The notes under the pieces: generated by a model
What the model was told of the DNA's origin: nothing
Database searches by the model: none
The model's input: only the letters and a program-made list of their open reading frames with translations
NCBI GenBank assembly: GCA_964187785.1
Contig: OZ076409.1
Coordinates: 32,738,001 to 32,802,000 of the forward strand
Source: Amphiscolops sp. MND2022
Taxonomy: Eukaryota
DNA length: 64,000 nucleotides
Direction: 5' to 3'
Made by a program: the position numbers and the translations under genes
Shown: positions 1 through 48,306 of the stretch, in pieces
Numbering within the stretch: position 1 is the stretch's first letter
Layout: the number at the start of each line of letters is the position of its first letter

Positions 1-2956
1 CCGCAAATGGTTGATGATCTCACTGGTCCACTTTTAGAAGACAACGCTGCGACGGACGGCTCATTCGCGTCAATGACAGATGCCAGTTCCGAAGCATGTT
101 CATCAGCAACATCTGGCTTGGCTTCTCCACTTTTAGTTGGTGGTTTCGGATCAACCATCTCGCCGACAGCTGGCTTGGCTTCTCCACTTTTAGCTGCTCC
201 TTTCTGAGCAAGTTTCTCTCCGACAACTGGCTTGGCTTCTCCAGTTTTAGCTGGTGGTTTCTGAGCAACTTTCTCTCCGGCAGCTGGCTTGGCTTCTCCA
301 GGTTTGGCTGGTGGTTCCGGAACAACTATCTTGCCGACAGCTGGCTTGGCTTCTCCACTTTTAGCTGTTGGTTTCTGAGCAACTTTCTCTCCGACAGCTG
401 GCTTGGCTTCTCCACTTTTAGCTGGTGGTTTCTGAGCAAGTTTCTCTCCGACAACTGGCTTGGCTTGTCCAGGTTTGGCTGGTGGTTCCGGAACAACTAT
501 CTCGCCGACAGCTGGCCTGGCTTCTCCACTTTTAGCAGGTGGTTTCTGAGCAACTTTCTCTCCGGCAGCTGGCTTGGCTTCTCCAGTTTTAGCTGGTAGT
601 TTCGGAACAACTATCTCGCCGACAGCTGGCCTGGCTTCTCCACTTTTAGCTGGTGGTTTCTGAGCAAGTTTCTCTCCGACAGCTGGCTTGGTTCCTCCAG
701 TTTTAGCAGGTGGTTTCTGAGCACCTTTCTCTCCGACAGCTGGCTTGGCTTCTCCACGTTTAGCTTGAGGTTTTGAAGTAAGTTTCTCTACGGCCGCTGG
801 CTTGGCTTCTCCAGGTTTAGCTGATGGTTCCGAAACAACTATCTCTCCGACAGCTGTTATGTCTTCTCCACTTTTAGCTGGTGGTTTTGAAGCAAGTTTC
901 TCTCCGACAGCTGGCTTGGCTTCTCCACTTTTAGCAGGTGGTTTTGAAGTAAGTTTCTCTCCGGCAGCTGGCTTGGCTTCTCCACTTTTAGCAGGTGGTT
1001 TTGAAGTAAGTTTCTCTCCGGCAGCTGGCTTGGCTTCTCCACTTTTAGCTGCTCCTTTCTGAGCAAGTTTCTCTCCGACAACTGGCTTGGCTTCTCCAGT
1101 TTTAGCTGGTGGTTTCTGAGCAACTTTCTCTCCGGCAGCTGGCTTGGCTTCTCCACTTTTAGCAGGTGGTTTCTGAGCAACTTTCTCTCCGGCAGCTGGC
1201 TTGGCTTCTCCAGTTTTAGCTGGTAGTTTCGGAACAACTATCTCGCCGACAGCTGGCTTGGCTTCTCCACTTTTAGCTGCTCCTTTCTGAGCAAGTTTCT
1301 CTCCGACAACTGGCTTGGCTTCTCCAGTTTTAGCTGGTGGTTTCTGAGCAACTTTCTCTCCGGCAGCTGGCTTGGCTTCTCCAGGTTTGGCTGGTGGTTC
1401 CGGAACAACTATCTTGCCGACAGCTGGCTTGGCTTCTCCACTTTTAGCTGTTGGTTTCTGAGCAACTTTCTCTCCGACAGCTGGCTTGGCTTCTCCACTT
1501 TTAGCTGGTGGTTTCTGAGCAAGTTTCTCTCCGACAACTGGCTTGGCTTGTCCAGGTTTGGCTGGTGGTTCCGGAACAACTATCTCGCCGACAGCTGGCC
1601 TGGCTTCTCCACTTTTAGCAGGTGGTTTCTGAGCAACTTTCTCTCCGGCAGCTGGCTTGGCTTCTCCAGTTTTAGCTGGTAGTTTCGGAACAACTATCTC
1701 GCCGACAGCTGGCCTGGCTTCTCCACTTTTAGCTGGTGGTTTCTGAGCAAGTTTCTCTCCGACAGCTGGCTTGGTTCCTCCAGTTTTAGCAGGTGGTTTC
1801 TGAGCACCTTTCTCTCCGACAGCTGGCTTGGCTTCTCCACGTTTAGCTTGAGGTTTTGAAGTAAGTTTCTCTACGGCCGCTGGCTTGGCTTCTCCAGGTT
1901 TAGCTGATGGTTCCGAAACAACTATCTCTCCGACAGCTGTTATGTCTTCTCCACTTTTAGCTGGTGGTTTTGAAGCAAGTTTCTCTCCGACAGCTGGCTT
2001 GGCTTCTCCACTTTTAGCAGGTGGTTTTGAAGTAAGTTTCTCTCCGGCAGCTGGCTTGGCTTCTCCACTTTTAGCTGATGGTTCCGAAACAACTATCTCT
2101 CCGACAGCTGTTATGTCTTCTCCACTTTTAGCTGGTGGTTTTGAAGCAAGTTTCTCTCCGACAGCTGGCTTGGCTTCTCCACTTTTAGCAGGTGGTTTTG
2201 AAGTAAGTTTCTCTCCGGCAGCTGGCTTGGCTTCTCCACTTTTAGCAGGTGGTTTTGAAGTAAGTTTCTCTCCGGCAGCTTGCTTGGCTTCTCCCCTTTT
2301 AGCTGGTGACTTCGGAGCAACTTTCTTTCCGACAGCTGGCTTGGCTTCTCCACTTTTAGTTGGTGACTTAGGAGCAACTTTCTCTCCGACAGCTGGCTTG
2401 GCTTCTCCACTTTTAGTTGGTGACATAGGAGCAACTTTCTTTGCGACAGCTGGCATGGCATCAAGTTTTTTTACGACAGCTGCCTCGGCTACTCCAAATG
2501 TAGTTGGTTGTTTTGAATCATCCTTTCCTGAGGCAGTTGCTCTGAGTGCCACCACGCATTTCGAGAAACCTTTTACTACACCGGCTGTCTGTTCCGACTT
2601 CTCATCTTCGGTTTTTGATTCGGAATCAATTTTCTGTGTAATGTTGGCTTTCGATTCTGGTTTTGACGTTTCTATTTTCTGGACCTGGTGTTTTAAAACA
2701 ACTCTACTTCTGGTCTTCGGCTTCTCTTCCTTTGTAACAGCTGATTTGTTTGTAACGTATTCTTCGCATGGCGCTTGTCCGGCTGCAGTTAACCTCATTT
2801 CATTTTCGGTAAGTGTAAGCATTTGTGCCGTTGCAACCACGAGTTCTTTTGTAGAATTTGGGTTTTCCAAATTAACTGGTGTCTCACTTTCGGGAACCGC
2901 GGTGTTTTTCCGCCACTCGGCATTTGGGAAGCCATAATCATATCGCAGCTCTTCTC
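1..2956 (-). CDS. Large 3' exon of the SET-domain gene: SET C-terminal motif, then ~40 copies of a 19-aa Pro/Ala/Lys/Glu repeat; runs off the window start
   Basis: Minus frame is open from acceptor TTTAAG| (AG at 2958-2957) to position 1. It reads (G)EELRYDYGFPNAEWRKNTAVPESETP...[PAKSGEAKPAVGEKLAQKP]n...SGPVRSSTIC. It is missing from the ORF track, probably because it has no stop in the window; the listed ORFs here are shadow frames. Confidence 0.8.
105..2460 (-). repeat. Coding 57-bp tandem repeat with a 1083-bp (19 x 57) higher-order duplication
   Basis: Unit ccagctaaaagtggagaagccaagccagctgtcggagagaaacttgctcagaaacca; variant patterns recur at offset 1083 (182 vs 1265, 802 vs 1885). Confidence 0.95.
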
Positions 2957-4997
2957 CTTAAACAAGGTTGCACGTGAATTTTTCAAGTAAAACTCATTTC
3001 TTTATCTGCGAAGAAAAACACTTGTGTTCCTTTTAAGCTTCCCCTTATTCCAATTTCTAAAACTAGATATCAATTTTCCTGTGCCCACGTAAAAAGTTTC
3101 TTGCTACCCGCTGGTGACAATATTATATTGTTGTTTTCTCCAGTTTCATTTTTTTGCGCTTCGAAATCTATCAAAATTTTTCTTTCAAAATTGAAACTAT
3201 GAAAATTTTCAAATGAGTCAAAAATATTTCTGAATTATATCAAAACTTATTCTATTTTTGGACAATGTAATTCGATTCATGTAAAACGGACTCAGTATGA
3301 TGCTGTTTCTTACTAGCAGAAGTTCGGACTGGCAGTTAGTAAAATTTGTCGTCGTGTTTTTACAGTCACAAGGTCGTACTCGCACTTGGTAGGATATGAC
3401 TGATTTTACAAGCACATGGTCGGACTTGCACTTGATTGATCATGATGTTCAAGCACCACGCGTTGCTACTGTTGTCGCTGTGACCCACCAATGTATATCT
3501 TGTAATTAAAAAAATGTCAATTTTTCGAAACCAATTTTTTGTTCAATCTAATGGCACTGGCATCCTCAGACTTGGGGGCAAATGGTTAACGAAACAATTT
3601 TCACGGATGTTTTTTCCACAATGTGATGGTTGGAAAAAATGCTAACTTGCTAAACTTTTTTCGAAGTTACAATTGTTCTAATTTTGGAACTCTTGTTGCA
3701 GAAATTCCAATGAAACATTTTCAGAGATACCAAAAGTTCTAAAACTTCCCTTGATGTTTCGTATTTCTGGCACTTTCTTAACTTATTTGTTGTTGAACTT
3801 TGTAATTTTAGGCAAAAGAGCTGCGGTATTTTGAAACGCGTTCGCACAAAGGTATATTTTTGGTAAAGTAATTGGTTGTTTTAACTTCAAAGGTTCTATC
3901 TTATGTTAGTGTTGTTAGTATTGTGGACAATCCCGCTATCGCGCGATTGTCGAGCTCATCTTTTGGGGACAGCTCGTTACAGTATATGCAAATAGATGGA
4001 TATGATGGTCCAATGCCAATAATGGAGTCGACCGTCTTTCCGCGCCAGCCCTTCGCGCCACTTCATGTCGGTTTTTGTCAAAACGGGCTGCTTGCCAAGT
4101 AATGTATTGTCTCTCCGCTTCGCTGCCTTGCTGCACATAAGTGCATACTAGGTGCATAAGAACATAGCTGATTACATTATCATAATTAGTTCATTGGTGT
4201 TTAGCACACAAACTCAATCACTTTGCTTTTTCCCTAATTCAATTTTCAACCAATCAGAAGCGTTTAATAAACGTTTTTGGCGCAATGAAAAGCTTACTAA
4301 ATTTCAACGTTTAGGGAAACGGCCAAAATTCTGGCGGTTACCAGAAAAAGTCCATTTCGAGGGATTGTTTAAAAAGATTACGTACCAAATAACAAGAGCA
4401 AATAACAAAAACAAAATTAGTTTCAAATAACATTAAATTGAAAGTAATTTCTTATAAAATAAAAATCAAACTGAATACTTGGTTGAAAAAATGAACTCAC
4501 GTAATTTTATCTGTAATTTTTAATACTTTTTTCAGTGAATCCTTCGAATTTTCTATAATGTTTTCTATAAACACTAAAACTTTCTCGTGTTTTTATTTGC
4601 TCTAATGCTATTTGGGAATTCACCGTTTGAAAACAATTTTGCTCAATGTCATGCAATTTAGAAATTATGGATAAGATTTGGGATTCATGCTAAGCCCCAT
4701 CCTGGTTTAAAGACGTCACCTGGAATCGAGAAACTTGAACACCTCTCAAATAGGGAACTTGATTTGAGCCTATCAAATTATGTACTTACTCATCCCTGGA
4801 ACTTTTGCCAAAAGTGATTGGAATATCAACGCCCTGTGTTAGTGAGTTATCCCAACTTAGATGATTATATACATTCCGTATAATGAAACAATCTGGCATC
4901 TGGAAAGCAGTGATGTCCATTTATAATAATATAAATGATTTTTCATGTGCCAGTGGAAAGAACAGAAAAAACTTATACAGCTCGTGGACTCTATTCC

Positions 4998-5430
4998 AAG
5001 CAACGCCCGGTGTTTGTGAATTTTTTCACGACTTGGTCGAACATGAACACTACTTTTCACTATCGGGTTAAAATAGCAACGCCCGGTGCTTGAATTCTAT
5101 AACGGCTTAGTCGAACATAAACACTACTACTTTTTACTACCTGGTTAAAATAGCAACGCCCGGTGATTGAATTCTATAACGACTTAGTCGAACATAAACA
5201 CTACTACTTTTTACTACCTGGTTAAAATAGCAACGCCCGGTGTTTGAATTCTATAACGACTCAGTCGAACATAAACACTACTACTTATCACTACCTGGTT
5301 AAAATAGCAACGCCCGGTGTTTGAATTTTATGGTGACTTGGTCGAACATAAACACTACTAGTTTGTGTTTTAAAATAGCAACGCCCGGTGTTTGAGCTTC
5401 ATTACCACTTGGTCGAACTTAAACATTATT
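4998..5430 (+). repeat. Tandem array, ~77-bp unit x6, core AGCAACGCCCGGTG
   Basis: Core at about 4999, 5075, 5152, 5229, 5306, 5377. Confidence 0.9.
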
Positions 5431-6560
5431 TTTCATTCCCTGTACACGAAAGTTATTTTTCAACGTTATAAATGGCTCTTTGCTGCAAAACATCCGCTCT
5501 AATGCTCATTGTTGACCCGTGATAATCCTATTTTCCAAAGAAAAAACCAAAAAACGTTCAAAAGGGCCTAATTAGAAGTCAACTTGGGCTCCGCGACAGT
5601 ACCAAAAACGAACAGAAAACGCGATTTTATATGCAAGAACAATATGTTTGAAATATAAATAGAACGTTTTTCAAAATGCACTTGGTGTGGCCTTACCCTG
5701 TACTTTACTAAGCATCGATGGGACTTTCTAACGCAGTCGTGTTTGTTTTCAATCACCAAGTAATTTACTGATTGCTCTCTCCTAATTGCCAGCTTGTATG
5801 CAAAGCTCTCAACTTGGTTCATTCACCACCCAACACCCCATGGGGATGGCAGGGTTTATTGACGCTTCGCTTATTATTGTGTAAAAAATAATTAGGACGT
5901 TTTCGAAAATACACTCGGTGGGACCTGAAACTAGTTTACTAAGCATTGATGGGACTTCAACCGCAATCTTGTTTGTTTCTATTCGCCAAGTAAATAAGTG
6001 GTTGTCCCCCTCTTGATTAAATTCAAATCAACAGCTTGTATGGCAAGTTCTCAACTTGGTTCATTCACCACCCAACACCTGACAGGCGGATAACTATACT
6101 CTATCTTAATTTTTAGCACTTTTTTCAATCGATAAACTATTGGGAATCAATTAGTGGGACATAATTTGTGGGAATTGAAAAATTACTAGAGCGTGGTCAT
6201 GTGTCAAAAGTATGGAAGTAAGGGACCATGTGTTCAATCCTCCTCAAGGGGCCGCTACCTGTCAGTTGAAAGTTATTCTTTTAAATTTTAAGGCGAAGAA
6301 AATTTGCGTTTGAAGAACATAGTTTGAACAAAATTTGTATTTGAATCTCAAACTGTCAAAATGAAATTAGTTTCCAATATGAACGTTTAAGGTGCTAAGT
6401 TTAAGTCTTTTACATTCGAACACTGTCACTGATTTCTCAAAACATTTCTGACTGTCATTTTGACTGTTTTTTGGTAGCAACTAAATCTGGGTTTCAATTA
6501 CTTGAGAATTCTGGGAAACATTACAGAAGATTGTTCCACAATTTGAAAAATTAAACTGAA

Positions 6561-6954
6561 CTGGAAGAATAACACGAGTTGCCAGGAAGATGCAATGTGG
6601 TCTGCCCTCGTCGTCATGAACCTTTTTCATTCGACAGTTGGCGGCAACTGATTTGTCCTTGTCGTTGATAAACCTCGCCAAGCCAGAGTTCGTCTCATCG
6701 GAAGTGTCAATGAACACTGTGTCTTTTCCCTCCTGAACTTCCATCACGTAGTCAAAGTTGGCGACTTGAGTTGCTCTCCTCGGCCCCCAATAACTCAGGA
6801 GAAACTCTTGCGCTTCAAATTGCTTTTTCACGAAAAGCCCTCTTCCAGTCGTTCCATTGGCGAATTTGACGGTCTGGACAATGACACCCTCCGGATCAGA
6901 ATAGAGGAAGTCTTTCCACGATTCAGTTTTTCGCGCAGCACTACGAGTAGACAT
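6561..6954 (-). CDS. SET-domain lysine methyltransferase exon (SET8/KMT5A-like), first coding exon
   Basis: GRGLFVKKQF...FLLSYWG...FIDTSDETNSGLARFIND...NCRMKKV...PHCIFLATRVILP follows the SET8 motif order. The terminal GEELxYDYG is absent here but present at 2957-2931. An acceptor (ctcttcag) lies 6 nt before the ATG, and an Inr-like TCAGT lies near 7086. Confidence 0.85.
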
Positions 6955-7380
6955 GGTTTTCTGAAGAGCAAGAAAGGTAGGGTTTTGTCACACAGAGCAG
7001 TTCAACCAAAATTTAACATCAATAAAGCCAATGAAATATGAACTCTACATTATAATAAATAAGTAAACCTTTTAGTGTTCAACTGAAACCGTTCGATTAT
7101 GTTTTAGAATTTAGGAAGAATGAAAAAATGTGCTCAATGACAGTGTTGCTACTAGGAGAAAATTCAATCGAGAAAATCTAATACTTTAGTATTAGTGAGC
7201 CAAAAAAAACATTAGTGAGCCAAAATACTGTGATTCATTGTTTTAGCGAGAAAAAAAGAACAAAATTTTGAACCAATGTTGTCAGTTTTGAAAGCAAAGA
7301 GTTCTCAAGAAATCAATGTCAGCTTCGAATTGAAGAAAAGCCAAAGTTTTCATTGGTCTGGTCACGCTCCCATTTTCTGT

Positions 7381-10300
7381 TCAATTTTGTCGGACCCAAG
7401 ATTCTATTTCGTCCCAGTGGAAGTCCCAAGTGGATTCGCAGTACATGTAGAGGAAAATCTCCCAGGGGCTCTCGAAGGGCTCTTTTCCTTTGGGGTGTCT
7501 ACGTTGGTCAGCCTTGATGATAGCCAGCATCTTCCTCAGCTCAACTTTACTGACAGTGCTCTCTGAACGATGACGATATGACCACTCTCTGTAGAGGAAT
7601 ATGACAACCAAGGCTTCAAAGTGAGGAAATGCAAAGGAGGGTTGGAAACCTTGTTCGAGTTCCTTCTCGAAGGCCAGGGCGCTCCGATACATGTGCTTCT
7701 CCATAATGAAGTTACAGCCAAGCGCCACGCTCTCTTCCGCAGTGAACACAAAATGGATCCATTGACTGGGTAAGAACAGACAATCGCCTTTTTCTAGAAC
7801 TATCTGATGCGTTGTCACGTCCCGGTGAAAGCCGAAGAAGAATGAACTGAAACAGAGAGCATGTTGAAGAAGCAACTATTACCCCGGAATTGGTCATAGG
7901 GATCTAAAATTCACTACCGTTCGTTCATCGCGCACATAGTTGTCATATATAAAAATCGGTGGTAGATTAATACCATCGATCAATAGCAACGCTCGGTGCT
8001 GGAAAAAAAAGTGACAATTGTTGCGACCTAAATTTGAGATAAAAAAGGAACGCCCGGTGCTGGAAAAAAAGTAATTATTGCGGCTTCATATTTAAGATGA
8101 AGAAGCAACGCCGTGATGGAAAACGAGAGTGTTTTTAGGTTTCGAACGAAAAAGCAATCGATCATTGATGATTCTCCAACGTTTTAAAAATTGAAGAAAA
8201 AACCTAAAAATTACTTTTGAATTTGTACCTATTTTTCAGAACATTTATGACGCAAGCAAAGCTCCTGATCATGTGCCTTTGAATAAAGTCTCACTTACTT
8301 TCTGTTACCGCTCGCAAGCCATTCCTCAAAAAGCTTTTGATTTTCCTCGGTTGGCTCCACAACAAAGAAGTGTTTCTGGCCCTTTGCCAAAATGTAGAAA
8401 ACGGATGTGCCCGTGAAGTCCTGATGCCAGTTAGTTTGCGCTCCAGCTTCTGACATCAGCAGGTAGTCACTAATTCCTGATGTGAAATCAAATGCCAACT
8501 GGTTTTTGGGGCTCATAGAATTCTTCATGCAATGGCCAAAAGAAATGTCCGTCACTATATTGGGCAAACAAAACCGGTGGACCATCCCGCTCTTTGAATC
8601 CGCGTTGAAGTCAATCACATTCATCGGATGATATTCAGGCTCAAGGCTGCGGTCTTCATTGTGCTCAAGAAACTCCTCCAGAGTGAATTCATCTTCATTT
8701 TCTTGAATCGAAGAGAAACAGACATTAATTTTGACCTCCCCTGGAATTCCCTCTGTTACACAACGAAAAGACGTCAAGCTTTCAGCAGGAGGAGTTGCGA
8801 TACCAGGAAGTTTGTTGGTACACTGGCGTATAACAACAGGTTTTGAAGGGCTCCCGTTGCAAAACTTGGATCTAATATCGTCCACATTCAGCACATCAAA
8901 ATCATTTGTGGCAGGCGGTGCTGTTGCAAACACATGCTGCTGGAATTCCACAGAACCAACTTTGACTCCAATTGGGGGAAGCGAACTGAAGTTTGTTGAG
9001 TAAGAAGCGACGCCCTCCACGGCAGTCTCCAGCTGTTCCTCGACCGCGACTTCGGTTGTCCTCGGAGGTGTTTTTTTTAATCTTCAGCTCTCTCTTGAAC
9101 GTCAACCGCTCCAGCACCCGTAAGAGTTTCTTCGGATGAGACTTCACTTCTCTCTCCAAGCGAAGCAAGGGTTTCCAGTTTAAATTGAAGCGACTCGTCA
9201 CTTGAGAAAGGAGGGCTCTCATCCGCGAGAGATCGTCGTTCTGGGGTCTCTGGAACAAACGGTTCCAAAACTGCGCTTTGGTCGACAAGATTTGCACTTT
9301 CCTCAACTGCACCAGAGGATGTAGTGGGCTTTTGTTCCAAAAACGTGAAAGTTGTCGCCGTTTGGGAAGTACTGGTTGTGGCTGGAGCAAGATGGTACTT
9401 TTTTTTGTGCCGCGTTAGATCAAAACTTCGAGTCGTTGTCGTGCCACAAAATTCACACTCGAAGATACCTTTTTGGCGTTCTGAAACATAAGACTCGTTA
9501 TGCGAAGGAATCAAACGGAAGCCAAAAAGAATGCTACAATATTCGACTTGGTGCCAGTAAAAAAGTTGGTTATAATCGAAGTTTATCGATCAATCTTAGA
9601 TGTAATCTAGTCACTGTTCATGCGGTGCAACACCCGGTGCTGGAGAATGAGACTGTTCCTTAAAAATTGAAGAAAAAGCAACGCCCAGTGCTACAAAAAT
9701 GAGGTTAAAACAAGCGCGACACAATTCAACTAGCCACTGTCATGAATACTATATTGGTATTTATTTATATATTATTCAGGACAGGGCTTGTCAAACTATG
9801 CCAGAGACAGGTTATTCTAACATATCTCCCTGAATTTCGTTTTATGTATTCAATTAAAAAAGAAGTATCGAAACACTTTTTGACGAAAATCACTTTCTGA
9901 GTTTTTCATTGAAATCTTTTTCAGAAACACAGGATCTTTTTCTCAAAATATTGAAGAATAGTCTGTATTTTCAACCACCACTTGCAGGAAAATACAGTCC
10001 AGGTTGAAATTTAAAAACACAGCATAACAATTTCTGACAAAGACTGCATCAGACTTCATTCATTGAACTTCGTTGAATGAAGCGAGAATGTCTTGGTCCC
10101 AAAAATGTTGAACGAAGAATCGAGAAACGATATCAACTTTACTACCAGTAACAATGTTTTTCGAGTGGAGCAGAAATTAAAAAAAACCATCAAACACTCA
10201 ATTAAACTACCAGAATTCCTTCACCTGGATTCATTCAACCAAAACAAATCATTGTAACAAACTTTCAAAATGTTAAAATTTAACATGTCGAGCAGATTAG

Positions 10301-16300: not shown

Positions 16301-17041
16301 AATTGATGATTGATGAAATAATTTTTGGACAGCCCTGCAAATGAATGATCAAGCATTCCAATTTTCAACAGAGGCTTGGACGCAAACCAAGAACCTTCAA
16401 TTTTATTTAAATCCAGGTACAATTTTTTTTCACAAGCTGTTTTTGACTGTTTTTGGTGGGGGCGGTGAGGGGGATGGTTTGTTCAATAATTTTTGTTTAC
16501 GGTGAATTCCCAGATAACACAAGAGCAAATAACATAAAAATTGAATTAGTTTCAAATAACATGAAAATAAAATTGTTTACGAGAAAGTTTGGATCTTTTG
16601 TTGATCCCCCCATTTAATTCCCCCCAGTTTTTATTACTCTATATTACTCTACCTTTTTTTAACTCTAACATCAACTGAAACTCATCTCTGTTACGGGGGG
16701 GTGGGGTTTCATAATTTTCTCTGTGGGGGAATTAACAGAAAAGATCCGAAAGTTTTAGTGTTCTAAAGCATTCACAATGCAAAAGACATTCGCTGAAAAA
16801 GTATGAGAAATACAGATAAAATTTAGTGAGTCCGATTGTTTAACCGGGTATTTGGATTTTTTTTAAACTAATTTCATTTGTACGTTTAATGGAAAGAAAT
16901 TCGCTTTTATGTTATTTGCTCTTATGTTATTTGGTACAAAATCTTTGTTTACTAACCCAGGCATCTTGATTGATGGCGACTGAACAACCACTTCTGATTG
17001 GCTTGGAATTCCTTCGCGCAGTGAGTGCAGCGTGGAGGCAT
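7381..17041 (-). CDS. Spliced gene: three C2H2/C2HC zinc fingers plus JmjC histone demethylase domain (KDM2/KDM7 type). Exons 17041-16957, 16178-16002, 9480-8299 (1-nt frameshift near 9078), 7846-7381
   Basis: All three introns are GT-AG and phase-compatible (1,1,2). Fingers: CTHC..HQSRC, CQLC..HVAKKTC, CEFC..HKKKYH. JmjC: AQTNWHQDFTGTSVFYILAKGQKHF...FLPSQWIHFVFTAEESVALGCNF, with HxD..H and the 2-oxoglutarate Lys. Confidence 0.85.
10030..12870 (+). repeat. Diverged ~0.8 kb direct repeat (about 10030-10800 and 12090-12870)
   Basis: Shared blocks such as tcagacttc..ttcattgaactt..ttgaatgaagcgagaa and gggtgaaaatcatagt. Confidence 0.75.
11335..11605 (+). repeat. Diverged ~60-bp array x5 with conserved AGCAACGCCCGGTGCTG core
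   Basis: Core at about 11340, 11406, 11465, 11523, 11584; inter-core sequence strongly diverged. Confidence 0.8.
15175..15915 (+). repeat. Tandem array, 58-bp unit x~13, two largely alternating unit types (116-bp dimer), core AGCAACGCCCGGT
   Basis: Spacers gctaacaaactagactg... and actggaaattgagactatg... mostly alternate at 58-bp spacing. Confidence 0.95.
16591..16747. mobile_element. Small MITE with GG termini and 8-bp TSD (Merlin-like)
   Basis: Ends GGATCTTTT...AAAAGATCC; GAAAGTTT on both sides (16583-16590, 16748-16755). Confidence 0.7.
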
Positions 17042-19657: not shown

Positions 19658-20010
19658 TTAAGCTGCTCTTGATAGTGGGTAAATCAGCTGCATGTAGGTC
19701 ACGGCGTCTTCCAGCGCAGGGTCAGTGTTTTCCAAGGCATGGTAGCAAAGAACTTCATAGAGTCTTATAAAACTGTGTGACTCTGGATCAATTCGCACTT
19801 GGCATTTACGGGATTTTGGCTGGGAGGGTGACACTAGACCCGAGTACTTGGAACGGTAACAAATTTTCACCGATTGGTCTGCGTAGGTCCAACGGAGTCT
19901 TGTAATGATTACGTCAACTAATCCGTTGATCTGCATCTCTTTGGGCAGAGTCCATTCGAGGTGCAAATACACTTTTTGGTACCAAAACGTTTGGATGGAA
20001 AGAGTGAATA
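19658..20010 (-). CDS. Unknown protein (probably a last exon), paralogue of 23871-24251
   Basis: KVYLHLEW..ITRLRWTY..IDPESHSFIRLYEVLCYHALENTDPALE aligns with the 23871 ORF; 5' end uncertain. Confidence 0.65.
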
Positions 20011-20894
20011 CTTGACAGAGAAAAAGAGCGTGGTTGAGATAGGCACACACACACAGGGAGAAAGAGAGAGAGAGAGAGTCGAAAACAAAACTGAACTGAC
20101 TGATTTGAAACAGCTCTGAACGAAAGAATGAGCCAGTGGAGAAACCAATTACGAGATATATAAGTGAAAAGAGAAAATGTACCGAAAAACAAAAGCCTGA
20201 TGAAGGATGTATTATTCGATAGGAAACCCTGGCAAATAACAAATAATTGCGTTTTCCTCCCTTCGAGAATGAAAGACATAAATAACAGCTTTGTTCAATA
20301 GTAGAGTATTATCAATTAGCGAATTAAGTTGCTTCATGTTAATCGAATGTAGTCGATGAAAGCACAACACCGCGTTACTCAATGATACATAAGGCTAGTC
20401 TGTTCAATTGTTCAACCTGAATCATTTGGTAATTAGGTAATCGGTAGTTGAATTTGTTGCTGGTTGGGCGACTAAAGAAAAGCATCAAACTGAATTGATG
20501 TGATAGTGCCGATACCTCTGCACTCTTGTGACGGTTTGAGGTTGAATTGGTTATTTAAATTTTTTGAGGTGGTCTAAAATCACGGATGGTGTACGAAGTC
20601 TTTGTATTACAAGTCTGATCCACATACACTAGTAACGAAAGGAATAAATTTCCGGTAAAACTGTCTCAGTATTTTGTGACCGTTTATGCCAAAAGAAACT
20701 TTTAATTTTAATTAGATGGACATTAAAGTTTGTAGATGTTTCGGATCTTGTAGGCTGGGGAAGGGGTGGCATTAGCAAGCAAGATATGATTTTTTGTCTT
20801 TTTTTAGTCATGTAAACTGTAAACAATGTGTATCGGGGGAAAACGACATGATTCGGATTTTTACAAGCATTCGATAGAATTGATGATTCGGTGT

Positions 20895-20960
20895 TAAGTA
20901 GATTCGAACCGACATTCTACAGCAGTAAAGTATTCTATTTTACCTCTCGGCCATAGCGCC
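20895..20960 (-). pseudogene. tRNA-like remnant or SINE head
   Basis: Box A-like TGGCCGAGAGG and box B-like GGTTCGAATC at tRNA spacing; no complete cloverleaf. Confidence 0.35.
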
Positions 20961-21034
20961 TTGATATTGGACGGTTCTATTTTAGTCTTATTCCTATTTG
21001 CTCTGTTTAAAGCACTGGTGTTAAACGAAAGACG

Positions 21035-21215
21035 TAAAAAAGCAACGCCTGATGTTTGATCGCACAGCTTATCCAGAACAAAGTGAAAAAGCAACGCCTG
21101 GTGTTTGATCGCACAGCTTATTCAGAACGAAGCAAAATAGCAACGCCTGGTTTTAATCGCACAGCTTGTTCAAAAGGAAGTAAAATAGCAACGCCAGGTG
21201 TTAATCGCACAACTT
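21035..21215 (+). repeat. Tandem array, ~49-bp unit x4, core variant AGCAACGCCTGGTG
   Basis: Core at about 21041, 21090, 21139, 21187. Confidence 0.85.
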
Positions 21216-21230
21216 GTTAAAAAATGAACG

Positions 21231-21679
21231 GGACCATGTCATCTATCCCCCCCAGGTACACTTTGTTAGGAATCCCCCCAGCACGAAAGCACATTTTGTT
21301 CTTGAATAAAAATATTTCACTACTTAGAGAATATTATACGAATGTAAATACTTAGCGGATTGTCTCTACAACTGTTGGACACTTCAGGTAAAAAAACCCT
21401 AATTTTTTGATATCATTGTCCAAAATGGCAAAAATTCACGCTTGGAACGAGATGAAATAGTATAAAAAGGCCCCTATTTCAACGCAAATTTTCTCCGTGA
21501 TGATATCTAATGAGCAACTTTTAACTGACAGTCAATGTAATGGATAGGATTATGTCGACATGAATTGTTTTATTGGATTAATATTCTAACGCAAACGATG
21601 TCGACATAATGGTATTTGAACCTTGTGACTTATTCCCCCCCCCCGCCGCAGTTTGGGGGGGAAACAGATGACATGGTCC
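21231..21679. mobile_element. MITE with GG-initiated TIRs and perfect 8-bp TSD (Merlin-like)
   Basis: GGACCATGTCATCTATCCCCCCC ... GGGGGGGAAACAGATGACATGGTCC; AATGAACG at 21223-21230 and 21680-21687; related lone end near 17745-17762. Confidence 0.9.
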
Positions 21680-22084
21680 AATGAACGATACGAACAAAAA
21701 TTGCAATTAAATCCTTCAAGAAAATACTAGGAGTTTATAATGTTCTTAACGTCATCAATATTCCAGAAAGAATGGTTCACTTTCGAAAAAGTCGCTTTTC
21801 AAGGTTATTGGGCGACAAGTTTTTTATTTTATACCTAAATACTTGAAATTTGTCAGTTTCTCACATTTGATTTAAAAAATAGTTGCAAGTAATTGCAGCT
21901 GAATGCATTCAAATCAATAAACTTTTTAATTGCCTGAATTCAAACAATTAAAACTTGAACCACTTTGATTGCAACGCCCAGTGCAATCAGCGTTGTGCAA
22001 TAAATAATTTATTTGAAAATAATTCAAAGAAATAAAAATACCAATCTTTATTCTAGTTTCGTCTTCTAGTTTTAGAATGAACGT

Positions 22085-22400
22085 ATTAAAATAGCAACGC
22101 CTGGTGCATCGCTCAGAGTTTGATTTAGAATGAACGAATTGGAATGAACGAATAAAACTAGCAACGCCCGGTGCTCGCGCAGTGTATAATTTAGAATGAA
22201 CGATTAAAAATAGCAACGTCCGGTGCTTGCGCAGTGTATAATTTAGAATGAACGATTAAAAATAGCAACGCCCGGTGCTCACGCAGTGTATAATTTAGAA
22301 TGAACGATTAAAAATAGCAACGCCCGGTGCTCACGCAGTGTATAATTTAGAATGAACGAATAAAAATAGCATTGCCCGTTGACTCGCGCAGTGTTTGATT
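22085..22400 (+). repeat. Tandem array, 52-bp unit x~6, core AGCAACGCCCGGTGCT
   Basis: Unit aaatagcaacgcccggtgctcacgcagtgtataatttagaatgaacgattaa. Confidence 0.9.
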
Positions 22401-22781
22401 TACAGTAGTTGACTTAGACGTCAATCAAAACTAATATAATGATAATCCTCAATGTATTTTTGTGAAATACTCTACAGTAGTGATAATCAGGAAGAATAAA
22501 TTCGGGCACTCATTTCCTCAAAACGGCGGGACTTTCTTATGCGAATTCGGTACTCCTATTTCCTAAATCGACACTCGAAAATAAACGAAGAAGCAATGAA
22601 ATTTTTCATTGATATTTAACGAAAACAAAAGGTAATGAAAGTGATCACAAATGTTTCAACACATATTCCAGAAATACGCGTTCGAGTTCGGGTTCTTGGT
22701 TGTTTTACAGATAAATTCAACCAGCGGCATCGTCGGCAATCGTCTTGGTTTTGAGACTATTTGTTTCTCAGCATCATCTCA

Positions 22782-23340
22782 TCAAAGTCGTGCTTGGAAT
22801 GGCTTGACATGAATATTGTTATTGGGCCGCCACAGATCCTCTTGTTCTTCCATGAAATCCGTCACATTCTTGAGCATCTTTTTGTGTCTAAACAGGATGA
22901 ACGGTATACAAAAATTTGCCGGCTACAAAAAGTTCTTAGAATTTTATCTAGTTTACAAAAATGTTTATTTGGAAGTCTTCTGACAAAAATTACAAAGTTA
23001 AGATTGTAAATTTTGACAAAATCAAATTTGCATTTTTTTCTTGATTTTCACAAAGTTGAGATAGTATTTTTGAAAATTTTTTAGTCAATCATATGCCCCA
23101 AGATCTGAGGGTTATCCTGTGTACCAAACACATCATGATATAGATTCTTTCGTAATACAAAAACCAGATTCCAACATAGAAACTCTAAACGATTTAGAAC
23201 AATAATTACCTTATCTTTCCGTCAGGGTAAACCACACTATTGTAATAGCAGAATCCAACTTTCTCGGGGGTTTGTGACTTGATCTCAATGACGGCGAAGT
23301 TTCCATTTTGTAGGATTATTGTCCCTGTCGCTTTCAGCAT
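22782..23340 (-). CDS. Possible small two-exon gene, 78 aa, unknown function (exons 23340-23210 and 22887-22782)
   Basis: ATG; AG|GTAATT donor and ctgtttAG acceptor in matching phase 2. MLKATGTIILQNGNFAVIEIKSQTPEKVGFCYYNSVVYPDGKIRHKKMLKNVTDFMEEQEDLWRPNNNIHVKPFQARL. Confidence 0.4.
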
Positions 23341-23870
23341 TGTTGAATACAGTTCAGTGAAGAATGAAACTGGTTCAGTAAAACTGGTTCAGTGGAGAAA
23401 GATGGTTGTTTCAACTGATTTTGATTGTGAATTGGCGCTGACTGGTTAGTAGGTGAGTCTGAAGTTAGTTAATTAGAAGTGGAATCCAATTGGTTACTGG
23501 AGTATCAAAGGATTCCTTTAGTGTAAGGGACTTTCTTTTGCTGAATACTTTATAGCGAGGCAACACGAATAAACGTCACGCTTGTTACTACAGTTTTAAT
23601 AATTAAGCAGCCTTTAAAATACTTAATTAGGTTACCAACAATCGTTTCGACTTTGCTGTTCCTAATTACTTGATTATCTATACCCGGTTATTTCACCAAA
23701 GTATTTTACTTTGAACTATATCACAACTGAACACCGACTCATTACTCGTGAGTAAGGTTTAAGGTTGAGACGATTGTGCTAGCACGCTTTTGGAAGGGTA
23801 CTGTAGAATTCCAGTTGTTTCTCAGTCTCTTTGAACGCAGTCTGTTTAGTCTAACCTACCAAATCTACTG

Positions 23871-24251
23871 ATGCCTTGCCACAAACTATATTTGAACTTA
23901 CTGTGGGTAGTTCCACAAGAGCTTGAAAACCTCGATATTGAGGTAGTTACCATCACAAAAATATATTGGACCTTCAGAGAAAGTGTCATCAGAGTTTGTT
24001 TCTATGGAATCCAATCTAACCGCTCTCATCCGCTACCCGTGAAAAAGACCCCAACGAAATTCAACATACACCTTCACCCACAGTCACAAAGTTTCAAGGA
24101 CTTGAACGAAGTGCTGGGCTACCATGCTCTGGACAACAAGGATCCACTACTGGAAGAACTGCTGAGCTTTATGTCCAGCATCAAGAAGATTTCTTTGGAA
24201 AAACTCTTTGACTCGTCTTCGGACGAATCATTCTTTGGCATGGAATTCTAA
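23871..24251 (+). CDS. Unknown 126-aa protein, paralogue of 19658-20010
   Basis: Clean ATG ORF; protein-level similarity to the 19.7 kb ORF. Confidence 0.7.
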   Translation: MPCHKLYLNLLWVVPQELENLDIEVVTITKIYWTFRESVIRVCFYGIQSNRSHPLPVKKTPTKFNIHLHPQSQSFKDLNEVLGYHALDNKDPLLEELLSFMSSIKKISLEKLFDSSSDESFFGMEF

Positions 24252-26539
24252 TTGCACGCACACATTGTATTTTTTCAATTCAAGTCGTTTCATTTATATT
24301 TTATTTTCATTTATAAAAAATATTTTATTACTGTAACAGCGATAAGTTTCAGTTGCAGTTAGAGTTATAAAATAAGTAGAGTAATATCGAGTAATAAAAA
24401 CGGGGGAATTAAATGGGGGGGATCAACAAAAGATCCAAACTTTCTCGTTGTGTGTGTATGTCCTACCAATGCTCGTATCTAACTGTTATCCTTGTATACA
24501 AACTGTCCAAGTATTAATTGTTCAAAACAAGGATGACTTTTAAAAAAGTTTTGAAACATGGATATTAGAAACATTGTAATTAGTGATTTGAATTTTTAGA
24601 TTTTCAACATTTTAAAAAAACGTCTTAATTAACACTTGAATGAATAAAAATACTTATTTTTGAGATAACTAAAACTAAGAGCGTTTGTTTCAACGAATCG
24701 TCAGCCAAATAAATTCGAAAAACAAACAAAATTGAGCTAATTTCTAGAAATACCTTTGTCAAGTACATTAAGCTACTGAGTCAAAAGGTCTAAGAGTCCT
24801 TTAAAAAAGCCCTGTCGCCGCGTTTTGGCCTGATTATGGATGGCTACTTTAAATTTTTGTTGATATTCGTTTTTCGCTGAGAATAAAAATAATAATTATA
24901 AAGCAATAGTAATATTCGGATAAAATATTGAACACCCCTGATTGTATGTATTTGGCTAAAACTGTAGCGCAGTATACGAACAAATACTCTCAAAAAAGCC
25001 TGGTTGGAGTAATCATACTGTGCGAGGAAGTGGAGAAGGGCATTGCTCTCAACACTACTGCATTATTTCCACCGTGGATGCGATTGAAACATCAACAATC
25101 ACAGTGAAATCTATTCCATGAACCATGAAGGTGGCTCCTACCGTGATTCGAACCACAATTTAACTATGCAGCTAGTGTGAGATCAATCTTTCGCGCAACC
25201 GACTACTCCAACAAGACCTTGAAGCATTCAGTAGTGTTGCAGTTCATATACCATATTTACTGCGAAGCAACGAATATATGACAACGCGGGAGTCAACAGC
25301 ATTTTGAAATAATTCTTGGTACGCCAGCTTCACGTACCTGCTCGTTGTCAGGTTTGACACGAGCTTAAAATTGTTTGAAGTGCAGTCGAATTTCACTTTC
25401 ATATTCTATACCCTCATTGAGAGGTAAAACTCATTATCGTTGGTCATTTTGAATCTCCGTTCTCCCAAGTTATGAAATTAACCATCCTCCTAGTGAAATG
25501 CAATTTTCGATGAGGGCTCTTCCCGTTAAATGTTAAAAGTCAGGTGCTAAGTGTTAAGTTAAAATGGAGCAAAACCGGTCTGAGCCAATCAAATTTCAGA
25601 AAAATGGATGGACCGGAACGAAGTCCTCACGCAAAATTGAGTTGTGAATTAAAAAGTTCATTTTTCTCTGAAGTTTTCCGTGCTTTCGTTCCGGTCCGCA
25701 TGCTTTCAGCCAATCAGATTGCAGAGAAATCGCAGTACGCTCTTTTTGAAGAGGATAAACAAAAGGATGAACAAGTAAGACAGCATAAGGACGGAAAGAT
25801 GCAAAAGGCTCAAAACAGATCGGTACCACCTAGGTTGTAAAATATTGTATTTCAATACATTTTGCATGAAATTAAACTACTTATATTTATTTTTCAAGAA
25901 AACAAATGATTTAAACTATTGTCGCTTTATTGTGCAGGAGTGCTTGAGAAAACGATTTCAGTTTCACATAACTTCATTCACTGTATTTACTTACAACCCG
26001 GATGCTCGAATTATTGTTCAAAGTCACATAGATAGTCATTATGGAAGTATCTCGCAGTACTGAAAAATCGTTCAGCTGAGTTTGACGTGTTTGATGTAAA
26101 AAATTTGAAACAATAAATTATTGTAATTGGAAAGGCCGAAAAATAAATTATTTGAATATATTTATTGCAATTATTTTCAATTATTTACTTGACACTCTTG
26201 GGTACCACTACATACCTACAATTTTTCAAGCAGTCGTGTAAACCACTGCACCAACAGAACATTCATTTGATTTTAAAGTTTGCTCTTTATTGCCTGAAGT
26301 TTTATGCTTTTTAATAAGAGCAAATTAAGAGCAAATAACATAAAAACAAAATTATTCCCATTTAACATAAAAATGAAATTAGTTTCATATAACATAAAAA
26401 ATAAATCCAAATACCCGGGTAAACAATCGAACTCACGAAAATTTATCTGTAATTCTCATACTTCTTTCAGTGAATCTCTTTTGCATTGTGAATGCTTTAG
26501 AACACTAAAACTTTCGGATCTTTCCTGTTAAATGCTAAT

Positions 26540-26995
26540 AAATAAACTAAATGAAATAGCAACGCCCGGTGCTTAGAACACTGCTATTCAATAATCTAAA
26601 TGAAATAGCAACGCCCGGTGCTTAGAACACTGCTATTAAATAATCTAAATGAAATAGCAACGCCCGGTGCTTAGAACACTGCTGTTAAATAATCTAAATG
26701 AAATAGCAACGCCCGGTGCTTAGAACACTGCTATTAAATAAACTAAATGAAATAGCAACGCTCGGTGCTTAGAACACTGCTATTAAATAATCTAAATGAA
26801 ATAGCAACGCCCGGTGCTTAGAACACTGCTATCGAATAAACTAAATGAAATAGCAACGCCTGGTGCTGAGAACACTGCTATTAAATAATCTAAATGAAAT
26901 AGCAACGCCCGGTGCTTAGAACACTGCTATCGAATAAACTAAATGAAATAGCAACGCCCGGTGCTGAGAACACTACTATTAAATAAACTAAATAA
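26540..26995 (+). repeat. Tandem array, 49-bp unit x9, core AGCAACGCCCGGTGCT
   Basis: Near-identical unit ctaaatgaaatagcaacgcccggtgcttagaacactgctattaaataat. Confidence 0.95.
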
Positions 26996-27075
26996 AAAAA
27001 TGTCGGGCTAAAAAGAAAGTTGTGATAAAAAATCACAACCTTGAAACACTGACACCCATTATCATGTATTTTTAG

Positions 27076-27153
27076 AGAGGCTCTCAGTTAGGGGATCACA
27101 TAGTGTCGCCCATAACAAGACCCACGCCGGGAACGTGGCCTCTGGAGGGTCTC
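27076..27153 (-). ncRNA. HDV-like (CPEB3-type) self-cleaving ribozyme candidate
   Basis: GAGACCC(P1) TCC AGAGGCC(P2) ACG(P3) TTCCCGG(L3) CGT GGGTCTT(P1', G1.U wobble) G [P4] CTGA(J4/2, catalytic C) GAGCCTCT(P2', one bulged A). Confidence 0.8.
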
Positions 27154-28214
27154 AAAATCTAATTTACAAAGTCTACTACGAAAATATGCTAACTACCAGA
27201 GCTTCCGGAATTTTATTTGGGATCAAACATTTCAATTAATTTAAACCAAAATCAATTAATGGACAAATGGAAACTTGCAAATTAACTATCAATTATCTCG
27301 CAATTGTTGAAGCAATAATTTCGGTATTAAGGCTTTCATCCCAAGATAGTCTATTCATCTTCAAAGATTTCGAGTTTCATTGGAAATAAACTTATCTAAA
27401 ACCGTCCATCTAAAGAACTTTTGCATTTAATTAGAGGTCAGAATCATTTTTTCCGTTTTTTCATCAAATTTTCAGTCAATAAACTACCTTTTGACCTCCC
27501 TAAAATCAATTAATTGCACCCTAATAATTGCAAATAAATAGTTGCCAGTTAATAAAACGATGAGATAATCAAAGAAGAATTGAAATGTTTTATGATGAAG
27601 GAAATTATATTCTTGAAAAGTTGATTCTGCTGTACAGTGTATTGGCGATCGAATGAATTCGATGTACGATGAGAGAAATGAAATGCTAATTATGAAGGAA
27701 ATGATGCTGCTGAAAAGATGATTCTGCTGTACAGTGCATTGGCGATCGAATGAATTAGAATGTAAGAATGAAGTACATATAAGAATGTGATTAGAATTTC
27801 GTAATTCTGTTTGCGAACCATGCCGGGACTGAACGAAATTTTGTGACGTCATCGTTAAAACGGTTAATTCTTTTTCGATTCAAAATGGTGATAAATGCAA
27901 GAAACTTTGCTAAAGCTATATAATAGAGTGTGTGCATGCATAAATCTATTGGAAGATCAATAAATTATTGCAAAAAATAATTCCATAGAAAGCTTTTGAC
28001 TTTGAATATTTTATTGGCAGAAAGCAATAAAATAATTTATCATACCATGTAAATAATTTCTCCATTTTGAGACGTTCTGTTTACTGCTATTAAATAAACT
28101 GAAGGAAAGAGCAACGACCGGTGCTGAGAACACTGCTAATAAACAGCGTCCGGTTGATATATATGATGCAAAACTCAAAAATTATATTCATATTAATTGT
28201 GCGGGGGGATCCAC

Positions 28215-37113: not shown

Positions 37114-37191
37114 GAGACCCTTCAGAGGCCACGTTCTCGGCGTGGGTCTTGTTATGGGCGACATTATGTGATCCACTAACTAAGAGCCTCT
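37114..37191 (+). ncRNA. HDV-like (CPEB3-type) self-cleaving ribozyme candidate, second copy
   Basis: GAGACCC TTC AGAGGCC ACG TTCTCGG CGT GGGTCTT G TTATGGGCGACATTATGTGATCCACTAA CTAA GAGCCTCT; same fold as 27076-27153. Confidence 0.8.
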
Positions 37192-45850: not shown

Positions 45851-45929
45851 GAAATAGGTAGGAGAGTAAAAGAATGTTTTTACAAACAATGTTCTTTCTA
45901 TAAACAATTACAAAACAATTGAGACAATT

Positions 45930-48290: not shown

Positions 48291-48306
48291 CGTTTTTTTG
48301 TCTTTT

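Follow-up and report, generated by a model that had tools for sequence, protein, structure and literature searches.

The locus raises the question of whether a zinc-finger JmjC (ZnF-JmjC) gene, a SET gene, small orphan genes, a ribozyme-like fold and many copies of one short motif form a self-contained mobile element, as an earlier note on this DNA proposed, or whether JmjC and SET are single-copy host genes and the motif is spread over the genome independently of them. Analysis of the window (the whole 64-kb stretch) and its surroundings indicates that the block is almost certainly a giant CryptonV-like DNA transposon. The whole element is ~34.7 kb long and runs from -5149 to 29535 in window coordinates, where 0 is the base before position 1 (G000:C1:32732851-32767535). 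The originally proposed extent, 1..28200, is thus covered by the element, but the element ends at 29535 and starts 5.1 kb to the left of the window. It is bounded by 21-bp terminal inverted repeats and aligns collinearly with the C2 and C7 copies (Table 1). The termini are sharp and common to copies, the flanks are unrelated between copies, and near-identical copies lie on different chromosomes. The insertion point is a (CA)n tract within an SLC7 intron. Of the 30 ends examined, from a total of 170, 29 adjoin CA/TG runs: all 12 far ends and 17 of the 18 recombinase ends. Empty paralogous sites were found for six of the seven flanks fetched. SLC7-type exons are present on the plus strand at both sides, and the element is therefore intronic and antisense to a host transporter gene, as first described. 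Separate subterminal repeats track the ends of each family. The copy in the window (C1 copy) has three lesions, one in the JmjC frame and two in the splice donor and frame of the SET gene, and is decaying.

Table 1. Coordinates of the element and its features, relative to window position 1 (negative values lie left of the window).
Feature	Position	Strand	Remarks
In-window part of element	1..29535	-	Collinearity with C2 and C7 copies; terminal repeats; empty paralogous sites; recombinase
Recombinase-end inverted repeat	-5149 to -5125		Host (CA)n directly before repeat
Far-end terminal inverted repeat	29511..29535	-	Host CA/GA microsatellite adjoins
Subterminal repeats of far-end repeat core	29203-29509		
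ZnF-JmjC exon 1: start codon, finger Z1 (C2HC)	16957..17041	-	
ZnF-JmjC exon 2: finger Z2 (C2HC)	16003..~16178	-	dN/dS 0.29, 4 changes only
ZnF-JmjC exon 3: finger Z3, acidic linker, JmjC first half (H-x-D)	8298..9483	-	Z3 at 9483-9400; frame broken near 9080 in C1 copy
ZnF-JmjC exon 4: JmjC second half (distal His), stop	7381..~7845	-	
SET-YR exon 1: SET8/KMT5A-like SET domain	6561..6954	-	Splice donor degenerate in C1 copy
SET-YR exon 2: SET end (ELxYDY), repeats	1..2957, on to ~-220	-	Frame broken near -60 in C1 copy
Coding repeat in SET-YR exon 2	109-2459	-	41 copies, 57 bp, Lys/Ala/Pro-rich
SET-YR exon 3: acidic tract, Cys/His knuckles, recombinase N-terminal part	~-574 to -2040	-	
SET-YR exon 4: tyrosine recombinase catalytic domain	~-2440 to -3215	-	
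SET-YR exon 5: short helical C-terminal domain	~-3707 to -4177	-	
Motif copies	3454..28123	.	52 copies, 14 clusters
Main motif arrays	4999-5425; 15143-15923; 21027-21223; 22075-22402; 26533-26997		Units of 77, 58, 49, 52 and 49 bp, respectively
Three-copy motif cluster	-3527 to -3335		Left of window
HDV-like ribozyme candidate	27076..27153	-	P1 with first G-U pair, P2, P3, 7-nt L3, P4, C-containing J4/2
Orphan ORF, 127 aa	23868..24251	+	Common to family 2
Orphan ORF, paralogue of the above	19661..20005	-	dN/dS 0.40 vs C8 copy
Host SLC7-type amino-acid transporter, 3' exons	54126..56755	+	Context, outside element; 5' exons ~-23900 to -21700

The genome holds ~85 copies of the element, many of them broken. 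The terminal 20-mer occurs exactly 170 times (control, 0), and 100 listed occurrences include 32 inward pairs, 30.7-42.9 kb apart. JmjC and SET are enclosed by all 32 of these listed pairs, and a scored recombinase by 27. Scored matches, as lower bounds, number at least 147 for JmjC, at least 150 for SET and at least 126 for the recombinase, and this multiplicity rules out single-copy host genes. Similarly, the motif has 2,361 exact copies genome-wide versus 2 for the control. Among the first 100 of them, 97 are in repeat-bounded copies and three are beside decayed JmjC or recombinase matches, and none lies within the first 32 Mb of C1. The motif is thus confined to element copies, with which JmjC and SET travel, rather than being spread independently of them.

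The earlier note saw no recombinase for this element and suggested that the continuation of the SET ORF past position 1 be searched for one. The missing mobiliser is, judging from its modelled fold and residue pattern, a tyrosine recombinase encoded there, left of the window. SET, which had been taken for a separate cargo gene, turned out to be exon 1 of the recombinase gene (SET-YR), with the order SET-repeat-tyrosine recombinase; it lies head-to-tail with the JmjC gene, 427 bp below its stop (~430 bp had been estimated). The recombinase is encoded at the 3' end, by the last gene. In the fold search (VIA), rows 1-18 consisted entirely of tyrosine recombinases and type IB topoisomerases (Z 11.4-6.9), and the catalytic residues R73, K125, R194, H220 and Y229 align with columns that 110-112 of 112 homologues retain. 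A DDE transposase is ruled out as the mobiliser. The recombinase was not recognised by Pfam and PDB sequence searches, Foldseek matches were weak (E 0.02), no DUF3435 match was found at E up to 1, and one of 36 public homologues had a Phage_integrase match, under the cut-off. SET fusion occurs in 13 of these 36 homologues and a JmjC domain in the same protein in none; by these comparisons, SET belongs, as a fused domain, to a family of SET-recombinases widespread in animals and is not special cargo. KMT5A accounts for 14 of the 15 PDB matches of SET, including the best solved-structure match (best E 1e-5), and the ELxYDY motif is retained. Unlike SET8/KMT5A, however, the domain is fused to a recombinase and has ND instead of the canonical NH as its cofactor motif, as do 8 of 8 scorable homologues, which makes methyltransferase activity doubtful.

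We take the recombinase to belong to the CryptonV family. CryptonV is described as an animal DNA transposon with a tyrosine recombinase and microsatellite-specific insertion (Kapitonov and Jurka 2012 as cited in PMC8869645). As far as that description goes, the element is similar in its tyrosine recombinase with intact catalytic residues, its microsatellite insertion and its lack of a reverse transcriptase, which sets it apart from DIRS/Ngaro. Its long frames (those of at least 200 aa were all accounted for, and selected ORFs were run against Pfam) include no reverse transcriptase, polymerase or capsid. In contrast to CryptonV as there described, these elements measure 35-58 kb (15-58 kb across the animal tyrosine-recombinase transposons considered) and carry a ZnF-JmjC gene, orphan genes, a ribozyme-like fold and motif arrays. 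In Starships, the captain is a DUF3435 protein encoded by the first gene. Starships are reported as giant, cargo-carrying eukaryotic transposons of fungi moved by a tyrosine recombinase (PMC10104507), whereas the present element has no DUF3435 match, has its recombinase last and fused to SET, carries cargo that looks selfish and not host-adaptive, and resides in an animal. Classical Cryptons (A, F, I, S) are described as having 4-6 bp direct repeats and no terminal inverted repeats (PMC3212892), unlike the 21-bp inverted repeats seen here.

The ZnF-JmjC gene contains the three fingers counted before, in exons joined through phase-compatible GT-AG introns in all four copies inspected, from three families. 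Pfam matches of the protein are to ZnF and JmjC only, with Cupin_8/JmjC_2 below or near cut-off on the JmjC exons. The best solved-structure match is PHF8 (E 3e-23, with a family-3 copy as query); in that copy H, D, H, T and K align with PHF8, and the same residues are found in the window frames. The iron and 2-oxoglutarate residues of PHF8/KDM7 (H-x-D...H, T and K) are therefore retained, but three separate zinc fingers replace the N-terminal PHD finger. The fingers are atypical, being C2HC with long linkers (C2HC/C2H2 finger exons, no PHD finger). JmjC dN/dS is 0.47 and 0.39 within family 1, values of 0.4-0.5 being moderate and including post-insertion drift, and 0.11 versus family 3. Although synonymous sites are nearly saturated between families, the catalytic residues, the introns and each of the three fingers have been retained. 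These substitution patterns indicate that the three-finger PHF8-like gene is under purifying selection. The Z3 helix varies among family-3 copies. Z3 carries Arg-1, Asp+3 and Arg+6, which by the Zif268 code presumably reads GCG, present in the reverse strand of the motif (a weak match, expected about 1 in 3 by chance). In searches for relatives beyond the host, there was no IMG/VR match, a metagenome search with JmjC returned a single 30-residue match, and 15 JmjC-related proteins (11 of 15 read) resemble Amphiscolops' own copies except one JGI fragment. A separate, single host locus with a JHD domain is also present in the genome.

In agreement with the ~50 motif copies initially noted, the window contains 52 at two or fewer mismatches (25 exact, 15 with one and 12 with two), and none at this threshold from 28.2 to 64 kb. 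The 15 clusters have mostly unrelated flanks and are located between genes and in introns, and coding exons (~25% of the element) hold 0 of 55 copies. The arrays span 32 kb, far from the element ends, and five arrays that differ in repeat unit and flanks share the motif core. The first bases of the motif resemble what we take to be an RFX half-site; the base that makes this half-site is mostly A in family 3. A 27-bp satellite on L127 was rejected as a motif array, being one tandem block.

The three-finger JmjC gene and variant motifs recur in two sister families (families 1, 2 and 3 in all), one of which has a distant recombinase and a Suv4-20-like SET domain; the recombinases of the two lineages align with an hhalign probability of 2.4%. 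The family-3 enzyme would also be a tyrosine recombinase on its R, K, R, H, Y pattern. The motif tracks the ZnF-JmjC gene across these two distant recombinases and not the recombinase. In family 3, one intron of the recombinase gene is packed with it; the nearest relative has another motif at that place. Three motif variants accompany three finger sets, in three lineages only, other motifs existing without these fingers. Fingers and motif variants are both absent from all six loci of family 3's recombinase relatives, a comparison of three lineages with six loci, each viewed through 30 kb. Three of the six have their own dispersed motifs without Z1-Z3, and such motifs may therefore be recognised by some other protein of the element or the host. 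A different single-finger JmjC lies near two loci, with no clear matching array beside it.

Other modules, namely a RING gene, orphan ORFs and the ribozyme, are exchanged freely among these elements. HDV-like ribozymes, which occur in R2 and related retrotransposons, feature a nested pseudoknot, a first G-U pair and a C in J4/2. The candidate in the block, already reported in the earlier note, shares this pairing, the G-U pair and the C; the fold thus stands, but a second copy lies outside the element (37114-37191). A purpose-built descriptor of the pattern gave eight matches in seven of eight regions scanned and none in 40 shuffles of 30 kb. Unlike R2-type ribozymes, the candidate sits inside DNA transposons, in two recombinase lineages, and matches no Rfam family (gathering threshold; E up to 5). 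Its minimum-energy folding z of -1.2 is uninformative for a pseudoknot, and its helices are almost invariant, so covariation gives no support. For the orphan ORF, close copies only and no Atlas match were found; dN/dS is near 1 for two short candidate frames.

How might these parts work together? We put targeted anti-silencing by a finger-guided demethylase at slightly below an even chance. From tyrosine recombinase biology, the element would be excised as a circle and reintegrated by recombination within a CA tract, in one fixed orientation and without a long duplication. The three fingers, at the place of PHF8's PHD finger, would bind the motif and thereby bring the demethylase along all 35 kb of each family copy. 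The repressive marks of the PHF8/KDM7 class are H3K9me1/2, H3K27me2 or H4K20me1; their removal would keep the element open to transcription and excision, and host genes would be spared. Damaged copies such as the C1 copy would depend in trans on intact ones, and the SET domain would most likely act locally, with the recombinase.

This proposal extends an analogy drawn in the earlier note with VANDAL, a Mutator-like element. VANC of Arabidopsis VANDAL is described as binding a motif and causing loss of DNA methylation (PMC5735166). In line with that account, a short motif is tandemly amplified in non-coding regions and confined to the family. The two systems differ elsewhere: the mobiliser is a tyrosine recombinase, with no Mutator-type transposase and no VANC homology, the protein carries a putative catalytic JmjC of its own, motif binding is demonstrated for VANC and a prediction here, and other lineages have motifs without the fingers. 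CpG hypermutability was not seen in the elements (ratio 0.8-1.3; the flank control gave 0 alignments), and a PF00145 search, exon-wise and able to miss DNMT1/3, found DNMT2-like loci and two small-contig matches. Without CpG decay and with only DNMT2-like genes found, any target is more likely a histone mark, and the DNA-demethylation half of the VANC model is probably inapplicable. More tentatively, 15-58 kb animal tyrosine-recombinase transposons may carry an exchangeable anti-silencing module, comprising a finger-guided demethylase and an amplified motif, that would be a histone-level counterpart of VANC swapped between distant recombinase lineages.

Rather unlikely, in our estimate, is that in this same transposon the motif serves as an architectural site or germ-line enhancer, its reader being a host transcription factor or the SET-recombinase's zinc knuckles, while JmjC is untargeted or acts on host genes. 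Dispersed motifs in lineages without Z1-Z3, the Cys/His knuckles and the intergenic and intronic clusters would suit such a reader; however, the motif goes with ZnF-JmjC across two distant recombinases, family ends are already tracked by separate subterminal repeats, family 3 mostly has A at the RFX-like key base, and the full motif is missing from host DNA in the stretch listed. It is also unlikely that the fingers bind the motif for self-regulation or recombination control, with SET and JmjC controlling the timing of excision or restraining copy number through an H4K20 state. Both SET types resemble H4K20 enzymes (SET8, Suv4-20), H4K20me3 is described as a transposon-silencing mark (PMC9406493) and thus odd for a pure escape device, and public homologues carry SET (13 of 36) but never JmjC in the same protein; yet SET activity is doubtful given the ND motif, and arrays over 32 kb, far from the ends, better fit a domain-wide chromatin change. 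A captured JmjC that merely hitchhikes, with arrays as slippage by-products, is improbable and already weakened: free module exchange, the many broken copies and the two frames with dN/dS near 1 agree with passive cargo, but not the conservation of catalytic residues, introns and fingers at near-saturated synonymous divergence or the same motif core in five arrays of differing unit and flank. Finally, segmental duplication of host genes or an endogenous virus is hardly credible despite the 35-58 kb size, the several genes and the tyrosine recombinases and microsatellites reported for some endogenous nimaviruses (PMC10871703), because sharp common termini, unrelated flanks and empty sites rule out duplication, the host JHD-domain locus is separate and single, and the long frames lack polymerase, capsid and reverse transcriptase and JmjC has no IMG/VR match.

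The locus thus holds a single copy of a large jumping gene that was active recently in an animal, and its putative histone-modifying enzymes, together with the motif copies, suggest that it may alter its own chromatin and so evade silencing. How transposons in animals withstand silencing by chromatin remains an unsettled problem; for sequence-specific anti-silencing, the case studied in detail comes from a plant, and the cited account of it leaves the mechanism open (PMC5735166). Here, the sequence defines candidates for reader, eraser and target site, in three natural variants. A literature search, with Repbase Reports and most subscription papers outside its scope, found no description of giant cargo-carrying recombinase elements with histone enzymes in animals and, in the same scope, no paper on SET- or JmjC-carrying Cryptons. 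The results also suggest a transposase identity for many fish and insect genes annotated as 'uncharacterized' or 'KMT5A-like', and a microsatellite-targeting recombinase moving 35-58 kb could interest genome engineers. If the anti-silencing module is real, lineage-specific motifs would mark parallel arms races within one genome.

In the 1.07 Gb assembly that contains the window (G000:C1:32738001-32802000), at least 147 scored matches to the JmjC exon were found. Copies on contigs C2 and C7 are collinear with the window over the whole 34.7 kb element, similarity ends sharply at its borders, and a 21 bp inverted repeat is present at both ends. The 20-base core of this repeat occurs 170 times (control, 0), indicating approximately 85 element copies. 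Among 100 listed terminal-repeat sites, 64 form 32 inward pairs spaced 30.7-42.9 kb apart, each with matches to both JmjC and SET between its repeats; in 27 of these pairs a scored recombinase match is present as well. Thus, the mobile, multi-copy element with common termini proposed in the earlier note is borne out. On C1-C13, with small contigs and weak matches excluded, SET lies downstream of 57 of the 62 strong JmjC matches and a scored recombinase downstream of 47. The window copy is 96.6% identical to the C2 copy and 86% to the C8 copy; between the C7 and C8 copies identity reaches 99.6%, which indicates recent activity.

In a survey of 30 element ends, a CA run precedes 17/18 recombinase ends and TG repeats adjoin 12/12 far ends, in fixed orientation. 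The host site of the window copy is an older dispersed repeat with ten other matches; in six of the seven paralogues fetched (of ten found), only a short CA tract separates the two flanks, making these paralogous empty sites, where the earlier note had proposed comparison with an orthologous one. At 78-83% identity, they exclude a long duplication on insertion, and they do not fix the crossover point. The note's description of the locus was also accurate: a motif block and minus-strand genes, in which a zinc-finger exon and two JmjC exons are followed 427 bp further on by the SET exon, lie between plus-strand exons of an SLC7-type transporter.

Positions of features in the window (negative values lie to its left) and at other loci of the assembly
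Feature	Position	Strand	Remarks
Gypsy-type retrotransposon, presumably	~-40800 to -28500 (L001-L003)	-	long frames
SLC7-type transporter exons	~22 kb left of window; from 54126	+	
Host-site repeat	~-5350 to -5150; 29540-31300		
Collinear with C2 and C7 copies	-5169 to ~29540		
Frame breaks, window copy	near -60; near 9080		
SET-recombinase linker repeat	109-2459		unit differs by family (L098)
Motif sites	3454-28110		array units 77, 58, 49, 52, 49 bp
Internal duplication	10012-10784 / 12072-12873		short frames, dN/dS near 1; extra copies in C7/C8 subfamily
Internal duplication	13696-14668 / 18072-19120		
JmjC gene start	17041	-	
HDV-like candidate	27153-27076	-	
Frames without assignment	30253; 30656		after the host-site repeat
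Second HDV-like copy	37114-37191	+	outside element
Tandem duplication	~38750-44600		period 2940 bp; identical frames 38749/41689 and 39896/42836
Maverick/Polinton-like capsid, integrase and polymerase genes, presumably	~45000-52700		broken frames; no Pfam match in the one scanned
51 bp tandem repeat	59282-59400; 60916-61034		two copies
Run of long frames	61700-63900	-	no Pfam match
Giant-element trains	C1:47.15-47.24 Mb; C2:75.30-75.34 Mb		L022, L023, L029, L033, L039, L043
Second-superfamily loci (six)	L110-L127		C1, C3, C4, C8, C9, C12
Divergent single-finger JmjC genes	L125:9057 to L126:312; L115:6587-8018		beside recombinase genes

The earlier note had suggested searching the continuation of the SET frame for a recombinase, and three more exons, encoding a tyrosine recombinase, were found left of the window. 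Exon order is the same in the C8 copy and in public proteins. Of five single-frame proteins aligned to the C8 copy, four match the SET exon, four the N-terminal recombinase exon, five the catalytic exon, and three all of them. This collinearity indicates that SET, a 57 bp coding repeat and the recombinase form one gene, the exon joins of which are inferred from splice signals. The repeat unit has a histone-H1-like composition in this family (family 1) and is 114 bp long in family 2. At E ≤0.001, 1885 relatives of the catalytic exon were retrieved; a scan of 36 long relatives detected SET in 13, a weak Phage_integrase match in one, and JmjC in none, and of ten relatives whose identity was checked, nine are uncharacterized proteins of fish or beetles. 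The predicted structure (pLDDT 78.5) resembles those of tyrosine recombinases and type IB topoisomerases: the best Foldseek match has E 0.02, and such enzymes fill VIA rows 1-18, the top one at Z 11.4 with an rmsd of 3.3 over 155 residues. R73, K125, R194, H220 and Y229 occupy near-invariant columns. By analogy with the circle-mediated excision and reintegration proposed for Cryptons (PMC3212892), the element may leave as a circle and then reintegrate.

The JmjC gene has three finger exons, and the phase-1 introns between them are shared by three families. PHF8 is the best structural match of its JmjC domain, with iron and 2-oxoglutarate residues aligned in an intact family-3 copy; a single JHD-domain match on C4 is separate and belongs to the host. 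In the comparison of the window copy with C8, dN/dS is 0.14 for SET, 0.26 and 0.34 for the recombinase, and 0.47 and 0.39 for the JmjC exons. The finger exons give 0.29, 0.61 and 1.2, from too few changes to judge, but they retain 44-68% identity at a divergence that nearly saturates synonymous sites. In addition to its frame breaks, the window copy has a degenerate SET donor. Frame breaks are concentrated in runs of A, and assembly error may account for some of them. Counted by hand, 26/147 JmjC matches retain stop-free frames of at least 410 aa at ≥85% identity.

The window contains 52 motif sites (≤2 mismatches), mostly in tandem arrays, and none to the right of 28110; the whole element has 55 in 15 clusters, none in coding exons. 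Exact copies number 2361 in the assembly (reversed control, 2), or ~28 per element, as in the window copy. The claimed confinement of the motif holds for the first 100 exact copies, with 97 inside repeat-bounded elements and three beside decayed ones. Cluster flanks are mostly 30-70% conserved past a few bases, and the conservation of the core is partly circular because it was chosen for similarity.

Two sister families were identified. Family 2, whose recombinase is 69% identical to that of family 1, includes one copy of ~58 kb and two that agree at 99.6% over 34.8 kb. Its ends are related to those of family 1, its genes lie in the same order, and it too has the three fingers; its variant motif is present in 3485 copies (control, 8) and clustered among the 100 listed. 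Family 1 copies often abut family 2 termini in one CA tract, so that giant elements stand in trains. Family 3 spans at least 15 kb and has fingers, JmjC and a third motif variant in a gene order opposite to that of family 1, and a Suv4-20-like SET on a recombinase-like protein that aligns only remotely to the family 1 recombinase. Two family 3 copies (L091, L095) carry two or three tandem recombinase catalytic exons. At six loci of relatives of this second recombinase (42-68% identical), neither fingers nor motif were found within 30 kb. With three families having all three and six loci having neither fingers nor motif, it appears that fingers, JmjC and motif pass together from one recombinase lineage to another, and this best supports the idea that the fingers target JmjC to the arrays. 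Against this idea, few lineages underlie the linkage, other dispersed motifs occur at three of the six loci lacking fingers, a different single-finger JmjC lies nearby at two, and one has a cupin-like frame without a Pfam match.

The second large recombinase-like superfamily, in which the fusion partner is a Suv4-20-like SET, comprises 732 candidates. One 16 kb copy is flanked by (TAC)n runs, and its ends look inverted. Three lineages carry dispersed motifs of their own, with flanks that differ between copies (12, 13 and 10 copies, respectively; L111-L112, L119-L121, L122-L124), and are candidates for more protein-motif pairs; in one, the cupin-like frame is split. Two single-finger JmjC genes of greater divergence lie next to recombinase genes and indicate that JmjC cargo reaches beyond the three families. 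The HDV-like ribozyme of the earlier note is a candidate by its pairing pattern, which fits a custom descriptor, and has no Rfam match. The core, with 1132 candidates, is found within 15 kb at all six second-superfamily loci (with a small RING gene just upstream at five), and is therefore a general feature of such elements rather than of the ZnF-JmjC cassette. The second HDV-like copy, close to short stretches that match the flank of a family 2 copy, is perhaps a remnant of another element.

Regarding what might be silenced, CpG transitions between elements are not raised (0.8-1.3x other C/G transitions), CpG observed/expected is 0.8-1.0 inside the element and 0.85-0.96 outside, and a methylase search yielded DNMT2-like loci and two small-contig matches. 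DNA methylation is thus an unlikely target, and histone marks remain. One methylase-like frame on a small contig (L107, C1674) is unlike the two DNMT2-like loci and may be foreign to the assembly; beside one DNMT2-like locus lies what we take to be a histone H2B-like frame (L105-L106).

The most likely reading, held tentatively, is anti-silencing: the fingers would carry the putative demethylase to the element's own motif arrays, and its delivery would keep element copies open. That another protein reads the motif is unlikely, although it deserves some weight. Self-regulation via H4K20 is rather doubtful; the SET domain is nearest to KMT5A, and its cofactor motif is ND instead of NH throughout the family, leaving the label of writer unproven and a methyltransferase role putative. 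Passive cargo is improbable, and duplication or a virus is scarcely credible.

The layout is like that of VANDAL/VANC (PMC5735166), and mobility is like that of CryptonV, for which PMC8869645 describes microsatellite targeting; the latter likeness is one of features, not of compared sequences. Tests of membership placed the element outside VANDAL, Starship and classical Crypton. Overall, this is a real, recently active family of giant transposons, which carry conserved histone-enzyme genes as cargo and a motif private to them.
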